Positions 588 to 23,149 of a stretch of 30,590 nt of DNA are shown piece by piece. Each line of letters begins with the position of its first letter. The stretch's first letter is position 1. The DNA is taken from contig JBBCAX010000391.1 in the NCBI GenBank assembly GCA_051382335.1, positions 1-30,590 on the forward strand. Direction: 5' to 3'. The notes beneath the pieces were generated by a model that made no database searches, was not told the DNA's origin, and saw only the letters and a program-made list of their open reading frames with translations. Origin of the DNA: Deltaproteobacteria bacterium TL4 (GTDB lineage Bacteria > SAR324 > NAC60-12). The position numbers were made by a program, and so were the translations under genes.

Positions 588-1298
588 TTATTTTTCCGAA
601 GCGGAAACCTCAACGGGAAACCCCTCTCTTTTCCATTCCGGATAGCCGGTTTTAAAGCGGCGGGCCTGATATCCTTTTTTCCGAAGTTTAGACACCGCAT
701 CAAAGGAAAGCATGCAATAAGGACCGCGACAATAGGCAATAATCTCCTTTTCGGTTGTCAATTTTTGGATACATTCATCGATATCTCTTTGCGACAGTTT
801 CTCAAGATATGCTTCCAAATCCTTCAAGGGCATATTGATTGCTCCAGGGAGATGTCCACTAGCAAATTCTTCTGGAGAACGAACGTCAACCACGGTCACC
901 AGCCCTTCTTGTAACCTCTGAAATAAATCATCAGAAGAAATGGGTTCCAGATGGTCTTTGGCAGTGAGGTAGGTCCGTATCAATAGATCAACTTCAGCAA
1001 GATTATTTTCAGCAATTTTCCTCAAGAGCGACAATAAATCCACGACGGCCTCATCCGCTAGTTGGTAATGTACAAAAAGCCCTTCCTTTCTTGTAGTGAC
1101 CAATCCTGCTTGATGGAGTTGCCTTAAATGTTGGGAAGTATTAGCCATCGTTAACCCAGAAGCCTTTGCCAAAGCTTCTACGCTCCACTCTCCTTGGGCG
1201 AGAAATTCCAACAGTTCCAAGCGGTTCCCGCTGCCCAGAGCCTTGCCCACACGAGCTAATTGTTCAAAAAGTTCTTTTTTCACATTTTTGGTTGACAT
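588..1298 (-). CDS. ArsR/SmtB-family transcriptional regulator fused to a C-terminal rhodanese domain
   Basis: N-terminal wHTH (KALGSGNRLELLEFLAQGEWSVEALAKASGLTMANTSQHLRQL...GLV). Rhodanese motifs VVDVRSPEEFASGHLPGAINMP and active-site loop YCRGPYC. AGAGGAG RBS upstream. Confidence 0.95.
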   Translation of the reverse strand: MSTKNVKKELFEQLARVGKALGSGNRLELLEFLAQGEWSVEALAKASGLTMANTSQHLRQLHQAGLVTTRKEGLFVHYQLADEAVVDLLSLLRKIAENNLAEVDLLIRTYLTAKDHLEPISSDDLFQRLQEGLVTVVDVRSPEEFASGHLPGAINMPLKDLEAYLEKLSQRDIDECIQKLTTEKEIIAYCRGPYCMLSFDAVSKLRKKGYQARRFKTGYPEWKREGFPVEVSASEK

Positions 1299-1320: not shown

Positions 1321-1340
1321 ATTCAACTAATTAATTGAAT
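1321..1340. promoter_or_regulatory. Palindromic operator, likely bound by the ArsR-rhodanese regulator
   Basis: ATTCAACTAATTAATTGAAT is a 20-bp palindrome with one mismatched pair (ATTCAA-N8-TTGAAT). It lies 22 bp upstream of the ArsR start, in the divergent intergenic region. Confidence 0.7.
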
Positions 1341-1521
1341 AGTTTTTTTAATTTGCTTAAAGCTAACACACACACTTCCCTTCGTCAAGTACGAATGAAT
1401 TAGGGGAGTCATCTGATCAAATGCAATATCTTACTCTGATTTATCAATCGCTGGCACAATACCACAAAAGACAAGATTCACCGTTGGTGATAACAATCAA
1501 CAATCAATATAGGAGGTGAAA

Positions 1522-1875
1522 ATGAACATTTTATTCATCATCAATGACGCCCCTTATGGAAGCGAGAAGGCATATAATGCCTTAAGACTGGCAATGGCCT
1601 TACAAAAAGAAAAAGCGGATGTCCAGATGCGGATTTTTTTAACGGCTGACGCAGTCACCTGCGCTTTAGCCAACCAATCAACACCGCAGGGATATTATAA
1701 TATAGAGCGGATGTTAAAAGCTGTGATTCACAAAGGTGGTAACGTCAAGACCTGAGGTAGCTGTTCTGATGCTCGTGGTCTACGAGAACTGCAACTGATC
1801 GAGGGGATGGAAATCAGTGGAATGGCTCAATTGGCGCAATGGACCATTGAGGCGGATAAAGTACTTACCTTCTAA
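1522..1875 (+). CDS. ychN: DsrE/YchN-family sulfur-relay protein, probable selenoprotein (UGA 1753-1755 = Sec; 117 aa)
   Basis: AGGAGG RBS at 1511-1516 and ATG at 1522. Reading through TGA 1753 gives ...GGNVKT-U-GSCSDARGLRELQLIEGMEISGMAQLAQWTIEADKVLTF-TAA(1873-1875). This is colinear with E. coli YchN as I recall it (VKLCKTCTDGRG...LAQWTLSADKVLTF, 117 aa). The UGA falls on the first Cys of the CxxC motif. Confidence 0.88.
1756..1792 (+). promoter_or_regulatory. Bacterial SECIS-like stem-loop
   Basis: CTCGT-GGTCT-ACGAG hairpin at 1772-1786, with a G-first loop about 21 nt after the UGA. The GGUCU core matches the E. coli fdhF SECIS apex. A lower stem is possible between 1760-1765 and 1787-1792. 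Confidence 0.75.
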
Positions 1876-1892
1876 CTATAAGGAGAACGATC

Positions 1893-2311
1893 ATGGGTAA
1901 AAAAATTATTGTTTTAGGTGGTGGTGCCGGAGGATTGGTAGTCGCCAACCGGCTGCGAAAAGCCTTATCTCAAGAGCATGAGATTACCCTTGTTGATCAG
2001 GGGAAAAATCATATTTTCTATCCTTCTTTTCCTTGGTTGATGCTGGAATGGAGGAACAGCCAACAAGTTCAAAGAGTTTGATGGGAATGGATATCCTTGG
2101 TTGATGCTGGAATGGAGGAACAGCCAACAAGTTCAAAGAGTTTGATGGGAATGGATATTGTTTTCTTGAGTTGGGCGATGGTCGGGCCGGTTATGCCAGT
2201 GGCAACTTTTATGCGGATCCCAAGCCCACAGTGAATTTGAAAAATCCGTCCCGATGGTGGCATTGGGGAAAAGTGCTTTTTGAAAAATGGTGGCTCTGGA
2301 AATGGTTTTGA
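1893..2311 (+). pseudogene. sqr: Sulfide:quinone oxidoreductase-like FAD oxidoreductase pseudogene (N- and C-termini only)
   Basis: N-terminal Rossmann motif MGKKIIVLGGGAGGLVVANRL...HIFYPSFPWLM stops at 2081. In another frame, about 2135-2311 encodes KEFDGNGYCFLELGDGRAGYASGNFYADPKPTVNLKNPSRWWHWGKVLFEKWWLWKWF*, a typical type III SQR-like C-terminus. The central region is missing. Confidence 0.8.
2031..2158 (+). repeat. Perfect 64-bp tandem duplication (2031-2094 and 2095-2158)
   Basis: CCTTGGTTGATGCTGGAATGGAGGAACAGCCAACAAGTTCAAAGAGTTTGATGGGAATGGATAT occurs twice head-to-tail. Confidence 0.97.
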
Positions 2312-2345
2312 GAACTGTGCGCAAACAACAATAATGAGGAATCTC

Positions 2346-2680
2346 ATGTTACAGAAACTACTGATCAACTTTTCGGTCAAACATCCTAAGCGGGTACTGG
2401 GATTGTCGGGAGTAATCACGCTTTTTTTCCTGGCGGCGTTCCCCAATATGACTATTGACACCGATCCGGTACACAGCTTCCCCAGGACAATCCGGCGATT
2501 GTGCTCTATGAGCAGATGAAGTAGGAATTTGAGCTGTATGACATGGTGGTGGTCGGCATTCACAAGACGGATGGTTCCTCCCTGTTCACTGGGATGGATT
2601 GACGAAGATTTACAATATCACCAAAGAGATTCTGAAAGTTCAGGATCATCCCCCTGCGCCTTCCTGGTGGCAAAGCGTTT
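2346..2680 (+). pseudogene. MMPL/RND-family transporter N-terminal remnant
   Basis: GAGGA RBS, then MLQKLLINFSVKHPKRVLGLSGVITLFFLAAFPNMTIDTDP. After a frameshift: PQDNPAIVLYEQMK*EFELYDMVVVGIHK. After another: DGLTKIYNITKEILKV. Multiple lesions, then truncation. Confidence 0.7.
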
Positions 2681-4753: not shown

Positions 4754-6955
4754 ATGAAAGAAATCATCAGTATCAGTTTAGGCCCTAGCAGTAACGATTA
4801 TGAATTTGAAATCGAGTTTTTAGGTCATGATTTTCGGATCCGACGTTTTGGAACAGACCGGGATGAAGAAAAAGCGGCAAAATTATTATCGCACTGGGAA
4901 TATGAAGCGGACGCGATTGGTTTGGGAATGGTCCGAGAGCACTATTCCATCGGGACGCGACGTTTTATACAGAAGGATACAGCTCGGCTTGAAAGCCTGG
5001 CCACTCGAGTTCCTGTCACCACAGGTTCTCATGTCCGGGCCATCTTACAAAAATGGGCTGTTCGACATACGCAGTTGGAGTTAAAGAATAATTTTAATAA
5101 TGCCAGAGTTCTCTTTTTATCAGGCATGCTCAACTATGAAATGGCGACTGTGATGTCAGAGTTTACGGAAAACCTGACGTTTGCGGATCCCGTATTGCAA
5201 CTGGGGATTCCCAAAGTGCTGACCTCGCTCAAGTCGCTGGAACTGTACTCACGGGGCAGTCATGAATTACTCAAATGGACTCCAAGTAAAGTCATCTTTC
5301 CTTCGCTCCCTACAGGTAAAAAATGGAATAAACTCATTCTGCGCAAGGCCATGCAAAAAGCGAGTATTATTGTTGGCCCTTTCGCTCAACTCGAAAATTA
5401 CACGTTGGAGGAATTAGGAGGAAAAACCGTCATCACCTCAACACTTTCCGAAGACAGAATCCAATTTTTTAAAGAGTGTGGCGTAAAACTGGCGATAGAT
5501 GTTTCGCCTCAAACCATGAAACACGTGATTGGCATGAATGTGTTGGAAGCCATGATTATGGTTGCCTTGGGTAAATCCATTGAGGATATTACCAGTGAAG
5601 ATTATTTGGAAATCATCCGGGATTACAATATGGAGCCTCGGTTAATTTACCCTAGCGGGGCATATAACCGTGTTAATCGCTTTGCTTTTGTCATTCATCC
5701 GTTGTCTCAAGAATATTTCAAAAAAATCAAACCTGTCAGAATTCTGTCTGAAGTCACCCCTAACCACTTTATGACTGTGGTCGAAAAAGTCATTGCGCAT
5801 TCACCACCCTTTGTTTACTCCACGGTTTCCGGTATTAAATCCCCGACAGGCGACGAAGCGGAAGGCTGGTTGATTTCTGTAGGCGGAACCCCCCGCGAAA
5901 TGCTGGCCCGCAGCCCTGAATTTACTTATCGCCGATTGCTGGCCGCAGCCAAAATGGCTGAGCGAATGGGTGCCTCCATCATGGGGTTGGGAGCCTTTAC
6001 CAAGGTAGTCGGAGACGCAGGGGTAACCGTCTCAAAACGATCCACACTGCCCATTACGTCAGGGAATAGTTATAGCGCTTCAGGTGCGCTCTGGGCTGCC
6101 GCGGATGCCGCCAGACGGATGGGGATTATCGCCATGACTTCTGGTAAAAAAATCAAAGGAAAGGCCATGGTTATTGGTGCGACCGGTTCTATCGGCGCGG
6201 TTTCGGCCCGACTTTTGGCAAAGGCCTGTGAAATCGTGTATTTGATCGCGCCTCGTCCTGATAAACTGTTGGAATTAAAAAAATCCATTGAAAAGGAAAC
6301 CCCCGATGCTTGTTTGGTAGTGTCCACTGAGGGGGATGAGTTTCTGGCGGATATGGATATGATTGTGACAACCACGTCAGGCGCAGGTAAGAAAGTCTTG
6401 GATATCACCAAAGTCAAACCGGGATGCATCATCACCGATGTGGCACGTCCCCTGGATTTACCGCCCAGTGAGGTTGCAAAACGCCCGGATGTCCTGGTGA
6501 TTGAGTCCGGTGAGATTCTAATACCAGGAACGTTAAAAATGAAAAATATTGGACTTCCTGAAAATGTGGTTTTTGCGTGTATGGCAGAAACTATTGTTTT
6601 GGCGTTAGAAGGACGATATGAAGTGTTTACGATTGGACGGGAGATTGAGTGGGAAAAAGTCAAAGAAATTTACGCCTTAGGCTTAAAACATGGAATGCGG
6701 TTAGCCGCAATTTCAGGAGTGAATGGGGTTTATAGCGATGAAGATATCCTCAGGGTTCGAGACTTGGCACTCAAAGAACGTAAGCGGCTTGGAATTCCAA
6801 CGCCTGGGATAGATCAGGATACCAGTGAGGAATCCTCCGCAAAAACTGACGGAGCCAGTGAACCTGCTGTCGCGAAAGCGACGGGTGCCACAAAAAAGGT
6901 ACCGGCAGCGAACCCCAAGGCACCCATAACCCCTGATAAAACCACAACTCAGTAG
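4754..6955 (+). CDS. Two-part NAD(P)-dependent dehydrogenase with a C-terminal acyl-ACP-reductase-like domain
   Basis: RFAFVIHPL, LGAFTKVVGD, TSGNSYS, GATGSIG (Rossmann), DVARP and FACMAETIVLALEG motifs. N-terminal ~300 aa 'ISLGPS' domain, low-complexity tail, AAGGAG RBS. Confidence 0.75.
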   Translation: MKEIISISLGPSSNDYEFEIEFLGHDFRIRRFGTDRDEEKAAKLLSHWEYEADAIGLGMVREHYSIGTRRFIQKDTARLESLATRVPVTTGSHVRAILQKWAVRHTQLELKNNFNNARVLFLSGMLNYEMATVMSEFTENLTFADPVLQLGIPKVLTSLKSLELYSRGSHELLKWTPSKVIFPSLPTGKKWNKLILRKAMQKASIIVGPFAQLENYTLEELGGKTVITSTLSEDRIQFFKECGVKLAIDVSPQTMKHVIGMNVLEAMIMVALGKSIEDITSEDYLEIIRDYNMEPRLIYPSGAYNRVNRFAFVIHPLSQEYFKKIKPVRILSEVTPNHFMTVVEKVIAHSPPFVYSTVSGIKSPTGDEAEGWLISVGGTPREMLARSPEFTYRRLLAAAKMAERMGASIMGLGAFTKVVGDAGVTVSKRSTLPITSGNSYSASGALWAAADAARRMGIIAMTSGKKIKGKAMVIGATGSIGAVSARLLAKACEIVYLIAPRPDKLLELKKSIEKETPDACLVVSTEGDEFLADMDMIVTTTSGAGKKVLDITKVKPGCIITDVARPLDLPPSEVAKRPDVLVIESGEILIPGTLKMKNIGLPENVVFACMAETIVLALEGRYEVFTIGREIEWEKVKEIYALGLKHGMRLAAISGVNGVYSDEDILRVRDLALKERKRLGIPTPGIDQDTSEESSAKTDGASEPAVAKATGATKKVPAANPKAPITPDKTTTQ

Positions 6956-20912: not shown

Positions 20913-21376
20913 CGTGATTATTGAAAAAGAGTCCCATCCTGCCTGGTGGGAGGAAACCGGACGGAAGAATGATGAAAACTTGTGCGTGTGAGTAACAGTT
21001 TCTTTTAGATCAAATCAAAGAAATTCGTCGCTATTTAAACTATAGAAGATTTGACTTCTTTGACTGCTTGGTTTATTTGAGGACGAGCAAAAAGCATATC
21101 AAATTTATTAAAAAAATAACGGATCCTTTTATCACAGAGTCGCAAAGAGCGCAGAGGAATGAATAATCGTTTTTTTGCGGAATTTAGTGTTCACTGTATT
21201 AGATGGATAGTTGTTTTTGTGATTGTCCTTGTGTAAGGCTTTGCGGGTGGCCTCAAAAAATTATTGCCGTTTTGAAAAGAATTTCAGAACTAAAGGGCGA
21301 GGACGTACCCCCGGTTTTAGTTCGCCGGTTATGTCATGTGATAAAACCGGTTCAAATTTTACAATGCAGGAGCAAT

Positions 21377-23149
21377 ATGACCAAAGAATTATATGATATC
21401 GGTGAATTACCCCCCTTGGGAGAGGTTCCCGAAAACATGCATGCATGGTTAATCCGACCAGAACGGTTTGGAGAACCCAAAGATTCATTTCAACTGGAAG
21501 TCGTAAAAACACCCTCAATTGCTGATGATGAAGTGCTGGTCTGCGTGATGGCCGCCGGTGTCAATTATAACAACGTCTGGGCCGCATTGGGAATCCCTGT
21601 CAACGTGATCGTAGCGAGAAAGAAGGCGGGAGAGCCTGAGGATTTTCATATCGGGGGTAGTGACGCCTCTGGAATCGTATATAAAGTTGGAAAAGACGTC
21701 ACCAATGTCAAAGTTGGAGATGAAGTGGTGATTCATTGTGGAACTTGGTCCCGGGATTGTCCTGTGGTTAAAAGTGGCGAGGACCCCATGTTTTCCCCGA
21801 GTTTTCAAATCTGGGGCTATGAAACCAATTACGGCAGTTTTGCTCAGTTTACAAGAGTCCAGTCTCATCAATGTCTGCCCAAACCCAAACATTTAACCTG
21901 GGAAGGTTCAGCCGCCTATATGCTGGTTGGAGCCACTGCCTACCGAATGCTGCTCGGCTGGGGCATCCATTCATTAAAGAAAAATGATGTGGTATTAATC
22001 TGGGGCGGAGCCGGTGGACTGGGTTCGATGGCAATTCAGATTGTCAAGGCCTTGGGGGGTATTCCCGTTGCCGTGGTTTCAGATTCCTCCAAATTTGAAT
22101 ATTGCATAAAGCTGGGAGCCAAAGGGTGTATCAACCGCAAAGATTTTGACCACTGGGGAATGCTTCCTCACTGGAAGGATACGGCCGGTTATGCCACCTG
22201 GCTGAAAGGTGTTCGAAAATTTGGAGCGGCTATCTGGGATATTTTGGGTGAGAAGCGTAATCCACGGATCATCTTTGAACACCCGGGTGAAACAACCATC
22301 CCCACCTCCATTTTTGCCTGTGAACCCGGAGGCATGGTGGTTATCTGTGCCGGAACCACCGGGTATAATGCCACAGTAGATTTGAGATATCTCTGGATGA
22401 GACAGAAACGTCTTCAGGGATCACATTTTGCCAACGATGACCAATCCGAAGGAGTGAATAATCTGGTCCTGGAGGGACTGGTGGATCCCTGCCTGTCCCA
22501 GTCCTTTACGATTGATCAACTGCCGTATGCCCATCAGTTAATGTATGAGAACAAACATCCGCATGGAAATATGTCTGTTTTAATTGGAGCCACTGAGTTT
22601 GGAACGGGAAAATCAGCAAAATCGCCAGTGAAGCGCAAGCCCGTAGATACCAGTGTTTACGAGCGGCCTGCCCGCAATTTTCCACCTCAGGTCCCCAATG
22701 CGGCGGGAACTCAACTGCCCTCAGATCTGTTCAATCCCGATATTTTCCCTGAGGAAGTTTTGCCGATCCGGGACATGGTAACCAGTGGCGTGATTTCATG
22801 TGGTTTAGCAACCACGCTGGGTGAAGTTTCGGATATTATGCTGGAAAAACAGATTCATGCGGTAGTTGTTGTTGAGAATGATCAGCCTGTTGGCGTTGTC
22901 TCTCAAACAGATTTGGTATTAGCGTACCAGACTCGTACCCTGGAGCAGCTCAGACAGACACCCGCCAGTGAAGTCATGAGCAGGGGCTGTATTACCTGTG
23001 GCCTGGATACATTATTATCAGACGCCATTACCATCATGACCCGAAATGGAATTCATCGCATTGTCGTTGTCAGTGAAAAGGAGGGGAAAAGCGAAGTTTA
23101 TGGCGTGCTTTCCATGACAGATATTATTGGTAAGTTCATCCGTAAATGA
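21377..23149 (+). CDS. ccr: Crotonyl-CoA carboxylase/reductase with a C-terminal CBS-domain pair
   Basis: AGGAG RBS and [15 protein letters not shown] start. Ccr motifs [39 protein letters not shown] and [15 protein letters not shown]. After a Pro-rich linker, two CBS repeats ([12 protein letters not shown]...[21 protein letters not shown]...GVLSMTDI). Confidence 0.95.

Follow-up and report, generated by a model that had tools for sequence, protein, structure and literature searches.

A predicted selenocysteine codon within a YchN-type dsrE gene

We identified a gene that very probably (probability about 0.93) encodes a full-length, 117-residue YchN-type DsrE selenoprotein with a U78-x-x-C81 active site. 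It lies in a 30,590-nucleotide stretch of DNA (the window), which is contig C391 of the 6.6-Mb genome (G000, rated 100 % complete) of Deltaproteobacteria bacterium TL4. From its ATG the frame runs through 77 codons to an in-frame TGA and then through a further 39 codons to a TAA at 1873-1875; with this single TGA and no further stop the read-through product ends in ...LAQWTIEADKVLTF. Retranslation agrees with an earlier reading made from the sequence alone (the sequence-only reading), in which the frame was said to stay open beyond the TGA with no other lesion. The 79-residue ORF of the ORF track is counted from a GTG at 1516. ATG 1522 is the likelier start because it is preceded by AGGAGG and residue 1 of the homologues aligns there (Table 1).

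The Pfam model DsrE (PF02635) covers the read-through protein over its whole length (1-116/116, E 4.9e-28). E. coli YchN (1JX7), the sole solved-structure match by sequence search, aligns over residues 3-117 (E 5.8e-32) and places the TGA on Cys78 of VKLCKTC, the CxxC motif that the sequence-only reading had given for this site. An AlphaFold model of the protein, with cysteine at the U position, reached a pLDDT of 95.9 and had YchN (1jx7) as its top structural match (TM 0.91), followed by DsrEFH and TusBCD (TM 0.69-0.83).

Table 1 Positions of the dsrE gene, its signals and its neighbours in the window
Feature	Position	Strand	Basis
Intact, divergent gene for a 236-aa ArsR/SmtB-rhodanese fusion regulator whose rhodanese domain has CRGPYC	588..1298	-	Profile matches
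Inverted repeat ATTCAA-N8-TTGAAT between arsR and dsrE, putative operator	1321..1340		Conservation
Shine-Dalgarno-like AGGAGG ahead of ATG 1522	1511..1516	+	Sequence
YchN-type DsrE gene, U78-G-S-C81 if TGA is read as Sec	1522..1875	+	Translation, Pfam, YchN alignment, AlphaFold
In-frame TGA, predicted Sec codon, in the column of YchN Cys78	1753..1755	+	Alignment of 110 loci
Predicted bacterial SECIS, apical stem-loop with a 5-bp stem and a GGUCU loop	1772..1786	+	Covariation, folding
Broken type III SQR-like flavoprotein gene	1893..2310	+	Comparison with the intact SQR of G004
Membrane-gene remnant, with two single-base deletions and a nonsense codon relative to the contig C11 copy	2345..2670	+	Comparison with C11

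Conservation of the TGA codon

The search for homologues with UGA or Cys at the active-site column yielded an alignment of 110 loci in which 26 have TGA at column 78 and the remaining 84 have TGC or TGT. The same column thus carries TGA in 25 loci other than that of the window, at identities down to 49 %. Every TGA row contains exactly one stop, and none of the 84 Cys rows contains TGA or any other stop. All three of the other strong matches from the same family carry TGA (63-71 % identity) and group with the window protein in the tree with support of 94/84, so that the close relatives have TGA and not TGY at the site. Across the phylum a strong homologue was present in 11 of 88 genomes, with TGA in six of the 11, our own genome included.

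Further TGA loci were obtained from wider searches. A scan of genome contigs, in which 80 of 440 confirmed relatives were kept and which is biased towards Cys and so yields no Sec frequency, gave TGA in one locus, that of Zixibacteria RBG-1, and Cys in the other 79. We found a match in 12 of 61 genomes among relatives of RBG-1 itself, with TGA in RBG-1 only. A pattern search of metagenomes, which forced TGA and so likewise provides no frequency, returned 89 matches, comprising 19 true homologues with TGA and 70 unrelated chance matches that were dropped. The best 120 protein matches all have Cys at the site. A selA gene was found above cut-off in all seven testable TGA genomes. Outside the phylum it was found in 15 of the 42 genomes with Cys, which are incomplete genomes in which misses do not count as absences. 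Among the Cys relatives within the phylum three of five genomes have a full selA and two more have selA fragments.

The region beyond the TGA shows continued constraint. In 68 full-length ungapped homologues mean identity was 63 % downstream of the TGA versus 71 % upstream, with pN 0.24 and pS 0.83 downstream versus pN 0.19 and pS 0.91 upstream; selection beyond the codon is therefore not relaxed. Every one of the 109 aligned rows has C81, and 85 of them have a third cysteine, Cys47.

Selenocysteine machinery of the genome

The selABCD system that had been named as a check on a Sec codon is present, with selA, selB, selD and tRNA-Sec each identified above cut-off in the genome. Contigs C168, C250, C154 and C310 carry selA, selB, selC and selD, respectively. 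The selD gene itself has one in-frame TGA, and a SelW/Rdx-family gene with a CxxU motif encoded by TGA (L218, G000:C77:28404-28637, minus strand) is a candidate for the third selenoprotein of the genome. The second version of an ab initio selenoprotein scan recovered selD, dsrE and the Rdx gene, a partial selenoproteome; the first version had missed selD owing to its coding-score filter. Five molybdopterin oxidoreductases of the genome had no TGA within their matched parts. As 1037 long ORFs terminate in TGA, the codon does not serve as a general Trp codon in this genome.

A covarying hairpin downstream of the TGA

As the sequence-only reading had stated, bacterial Sec is specified by UGA together with an immediately 3′ SECIS. 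A conserved, covarying stem-loop that starts 16 nt after the TGA, and that encodes part of A-R-G-L-R, is consistent with such an element. In the nine TGA sequences sharing the register of the window all 45 stem cells pair and five cells are compensatory, a score that none of 500 shuffles reached, although these sequences are related loci that are not independent, and the shuffle result is not a probability. Two of the five stem pairs change from U-A to C-G on both sides at synonymous third positions, and slid registers pair at 27-58 % in the same comparison. All 15 nt of the stem-loop are shared by the window and Zixibacteria, between which overall nucleotide identity is 65 % and that of third positions 46 %.

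Using a threshold of -4 kcal/mol and a loop placed 19-23 nt after the codon, both chosen after the hairpin of the window had been seen, we found such a hairpin in 23 of the 25 distinct TGA loci as opposed to 4 of the 84 loci with Cys; by the same measure it occurred at 28 of 1037 true TGA stops of the genome, and at 2.1-2.7 % of true stops overall. At -5 kcal/mol the counts were 17/25 and 2/84, a cut that the hairpin of the window itself fails, and a perfect 5-bp stem in two fixed registers was found in 20/25 TGA versus 1/84 Cys loci. The accessible text of PMC13188914 gives a bacterial SECIS consensus with a loop of 3-9 nt, an upper stem of 4-16 bp, a G at the first two positions of the loop, the loop 16-37 nt after the UGA and an MFE of at most -7.5 kcal/mol. 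The dsrE hairpin fits this geometry, with a stem of 5-6 bp, GGUCU or GUC as its loop and a spacing of 21-22 nt, and the selD SECIS of the same genome also has a GGUC loop. The stem-loop of the window has a stability of -4.2 to -5.5 kcal/mol alone and -8.7 to -8.8 kcal/mol with a lower stem, relative to the consensus limit of -7.5, and is no stabler than shuffles. Folding alone was set aside as a means of identifying the SECIS, the hairpin not being singled out (z -0.25 to +0.77 against shuffles, about +0.5; pairing probability 0.1-0.5). Ten per cent of synonymous recodings reach the stability of the window hairpin; across the TGA loci this control covered 6 of 25.

Taken with the contrast between TGA and Cys homologues, the hairpin makes a fresh nonsense mutation very unlikely. 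A single base separates TGC or TGT from TGA, the neighbouring genes are decayed, and some database entries (protein cluster 5: P0129, P0137, P0140-P0142) read Trp at the site, so that a nonsense mutation, a sequencing error or a Trp codon unrelated to Sec would in principle account for the stop, and the sequence-only reading had itself raised a TGY to TGA change. The Trp entries are likely due to a gene caller picking a code with TGA as Trp on short contigs. Recurrence of the codon in one column of the 25 further loci, the freedom of all Cys rows from stops, the covarying hairpin that accompanies the TGA and the many ORFs that end in TGA largely refute these explanations.

Possible switching between Sec and Cys

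The full tree requires five Sec/Cys changes, and none of 200 bootstrap trees has one change. When columns 78-90 were removed the AU test did not reject a single Sec clade (p 0.39), and a repeated origin of Sec is therefore not established by these trees, both of which omit three partial TGA rows; several origins as a firm result were accordingly set aside. Three hairpin registers exist among the Sec-DsrE genes. One of them, falling on A-R-G-L-S, is found in a clade of Clostridia-labelled relatives (L132, L146, L164, L167, L194). The Cys homologue L037, which has TGC, keeps a perfect SECIS-like stem in the register of the window, and a contig of its genome ends in a partial selA; the homologue is possibly a Sec-to-Cys reversion or a pre-adaptation. 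We would tentatively suggest, as the more doubtful of our proposals, that YchN-type DsrE proteins have switched between Cys and Sec several times, A-R-G-L-R and A-R-G-L-S needing few synonymous changes to form a SECIS, and that the Sec form acts as an Se-SH relay under an ArsR-rhodanese sensor. If true, this would be a chemistry that we found for no DsrE protein in the literature searched.

Genomic surroundings of the dsrE gene

The divergently encoded ArsR-rhodanese regulator is separated from dsrE by an inverted repeat, ATTCAA-N8-TTGAAT, which was seen again at 14 of the 17 full-length ArsR-rhodanese loci that we checked and has seven matches in the whole genome, both cassettes described here among them. 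From its sequence and conservation the repeat is likely the operator of the ArsR-rhodanese. A scan for sigma-70 promoters and terminators in the window gave matches at chance level only.

Downstream of dsrE the sequence-only reading had warned that the neighbouring genes are decayed, and this proved correct for both the SQR and the membrane gene. In the SQR gene the N-terminus is fused to the C-terminus with the loss of about 260 codons, leaving residues that match 5-70 and 334-390 of the G004 SQR, and a 64-bp tandem duplication (2030/2094) is also present. The membrane-gene remnant belongs to what we take to be an MMPL/RND-like family. A second cassette, spread over G000:C97:19005-20761 and G000:C11:7213-10425, encodes an ArsR-rhodanese, an SQR, a methyltransferase-like protein, a distant, Cys-bearing DsrE and a membrane protein. 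The SQR of this cassette is divided at a repeat that has terminal inverted repeats and more than 20 copies in the assembly, and both SQR copies of the genome are thus broken. For TusA this genome gave no more than a sub-threshold match. Positions 1-560 and 2700-2920 of the window hold multi-copy repeat fragments that flank the cassette and are likely insertion-sequence remnants; many such multi-copy repeats lie at contig ends across the genome.

In G004 the gene order is arsR-rhodanese, Sec-dsrE, tusA and sqr, and G043, G042 and L181 also pair the dsrE gene with an SQR. The dsrE gene precedes sqr in the window and in G004 and follows it in G043, G042 and L181. In the flanks available, SQR adjoins 5 of the 26 loci with TGA and 22 of the 84 with Cys, and an SQR or ArsR match adjoins 8 of 26 and 39 of 84, respectively; 18 of the 26 TGA loci, many of them short, lack a match to SQR, TusA or ArsR in the DNA available. 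Since the cassette also occurs with Cys and Sec-DsrE also occurs outside it, the cassette is neither specific to Sec nor needed by Sec-DsrE. In the Zixibacteria loci L096, L128, L168 and L173 the Sec-dsrE gene is closely flanked by an smc-like gene on one side and ftsY on the other, in a housekeeping setting, while the Clostridia-labelled clade has its genes near selD-like, NifS-like, SLAC1-family and small ArsR genes.

The decay of the neighbours bears on the present use of dsrE in this strain and not on the nature of the TGA. The codon could be an inherited Sec codon in a gene that is now an unexpressed or unselected relic of the decaying cassette, as the broken SQR and the broken gene next to it, together with the splitting of the second SQR at a high-copy repeat, would suggest; L136, a metagenome homologue with TGA, is itself broken upstream. 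Yet dsrE (351 bp), arsR-rhodanese (711 bp), the RBS, the operator and the hairpin are free of lesions, whereas about 750 bp of adjoining remnant has five. If all had died together the chance of zero lesions would be roughly 0.1 for dsrE alone and 0.001 for both genes. With a length of 0.13, the end branch of the window protein does not exceed the branches of its Sec sisters (0.16-0.28). We therefore consider a relic improbable, although the present-day use of dsrE in this strain is less sure than the identity of its TGA, the SQR and membrane genes being broken.

Relation to known DsrE proteins

A UxxC "DsrE-like protein" selenoprotein (PF02635) was predicted by Zhang, Fomenko & Gladyshev 2005 in a survey of the Sargasso Sea (PMC1088965), and recurs in PMC1794560, PMC2398784 (as DsrE 1 and DsrE 2), PMC9312934 and PMC13188914, reviews up to 2026 included, where it stands in the accessible text as predicted and functionally uncharacterised; the sequence-only reading had described it in the same terms. 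The supplement of PMC5029168, in its accessible part, records it in 17 organisms. As far as these texts go, the family shares PF02635, the UxxC motif and an in-frame TGA with a downstream hairpin with the gene of the window. By eye, the Sargasso entries of PMC1088965 read U-G-G-C-A-E-A-R-G...ADRVVTF where the window protein reads U-G-S-C-S-D-A-R-G...ADKVLTF, and their tail after the UGA is 40 residues compared to 39 here. The gene is thus very likely one more member of this catalogued family of predicted selenoproteins, in a new genome and lineage, and no new kind of system; what it adds is a covarying SECIS, a putative operator and an SQR partner that has been lost. SaoD, a separate DsrE family, never has Sec according to the accessible part of 10.1101/2022.07.06.499078.

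Among characterised structures E. coli YchN (1JX7) is closest, with 47 % identity, a TM of 0.91, the same length and a CxxC at 78-81 like the UxxC of the window; it has Cys in place of the Sec and lacks the third cysteine, Cys47. DsrE of DsrEFH and TusD of TusBCD share the fold (2HY5, 2D1P; TM 0.80-0.83) and, as far as the accessible literature describes it, the catalytic column Cys78, but at 21 % identity, and the window protein scores 47.6 bits against the TusD equivalog, below its cut-off of 89.25. Their F and H partners were not found near the gene, neither of the two PF02635 genes of the genome lies in a triad, and no dsrA was found above cut-off in the genome. Like the DsrE4 group, which in the accessible descriptions is encoded beside SQR, the dsrE genes of the window (with its SQR remnant), G004, G043, G042 and L181 adjoin an SQR. 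Among relatives the SQR-adjacent gene also lies beside TusA. The likeness to DsrE4 is one of gene neighbourhood, and the gene of the window differs in lying upstream of sqr. The protein passed no specific NCBIfam model, and the literature searched, mostly open-access, contained no biochemical study of Sec-DsrE or YchN.

Standard pipelines misannotate these genes, as the sequence-only reading had expected. Public records cut relatives at 76-77 residues (EQB63852.1, "hypothetical protein"; MDF2839480.1 and others) or read Trp at the site, and either the truncation or the Trp hides the catalytic residue, which the annotation given here corrects. The family also offers a compact test system for a YchN/DsrE-like selenoprotein: Sec and Cys forms occur naturally as pairs of 70-80 % identity, covariation defines the SECIS, and the regulator has a candidate operator.

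Proposed function

The sequence-only reading had proposed a Sec-containing sulfur carrier or redox protein, of which the Sec part is upheld by the machinery, the homologues and the hairpin, while the sulfur or redox role is one that we infer. The persulfide role of Cys78 and the work on DsrE3 and DsrE4 favour a Sec-based persulfide carrier or quencher. The whole explanation that we prefer, and hold to be probable though well short of assured, is that Sec-DsrE acts as a persulfide carrier or reactive-sulfur quencher under a persulfide-sensing ArsR. In the accessible parts of the sources, the persulfide of DsrE/TusD forms at Cys78 (PMC3397948), DsrE3 proteins assemble as trimers, accept sulfur from polysulfide and donate it to TusA and rhodanese (PMC11094781), a role in detoxifying reactive sulfur has been proposed for DsrE4, whose gene adjoins SQR (PMC11094781, PMC4175335), and YchN itself is functionally uncharacterised (PMC3878590).

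On this proposal SelB carrying Sec-tRNA would bind the hairpin with its GGUCU loop and Sec would, with high confidence, be inserted at the UGA. The product would adopt the DsrE fold, likely as a trimer or hexamer like YchN and DsrE3. With slightly better than even odds, the selenolate at position 78 would attack a polysulfide or persulfide, for example one supplied by the neighbouring SQR, to give Se-SH, and the sulfur would then pass to TusA or rhodanese or be released through a Se78-S81 bond that is re-reduced. The ArsR-rhodanese may repress the operon at the inverted repeat and let go once its rhodanese cysteine is persulfidated. Since the SQR partner is broken in this genome, DsrE would serve, if at all, as a stand-alone buffer of reactive sulfur.

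The main rival, which we judge unlikely but well ahead of the other alternatives, accepts Sec insertion and takes the protein to be a thiol/selenol oxidoreductase that cycles between Se78 and S81 against oxidants or disulfides. Such a cycle would fit the invariance of C81, whereas a single cysteine suffices for canonical DsrE proteins (PMC11094781, accessible text), and the Sec form is often found apart from SQR or TusA, as in the Zixibacteria loci. In Salmonella, according to the accessible part of PMC3878590, wraB/ychN and ychN/yajD double mutants are more sensitive to H2O2, but the ychN single mutant has no phenotype. The fold and catalytic column match proven sulfurtransferases, and SQR, rhodanese and TusA all sit in the cassette, which speaks for the persulfide carrier or quencher that we prefer. 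That the Sec form instead handles selenium, as a carrier of selenide or perselenide tied to SelD or a Sec lyase, seems very improbable. Members of one TGA clade have selD-like genes (L132, L167) or a gene for a NifS-like class-V aminotransferase (L146, L164) nearby, but such neighbours are lacking in the window and in its same-family relatives, and the same cassette is common with Cys, also in genomes where selA was not found.

Elsewhere in the window we identified two ORFs on the plus strand that lie apart from the cassette. The product of 4754-6955 has 733 residues and no Pfam match, its C-terminal half resembling PigE and acyl-ACP reductase models below cut-off. Positions 21203-23146 encode a crotonyl-CoA carboxylase/reductase, matched above cut-off, that is fused to two C-terminal CBS domains.
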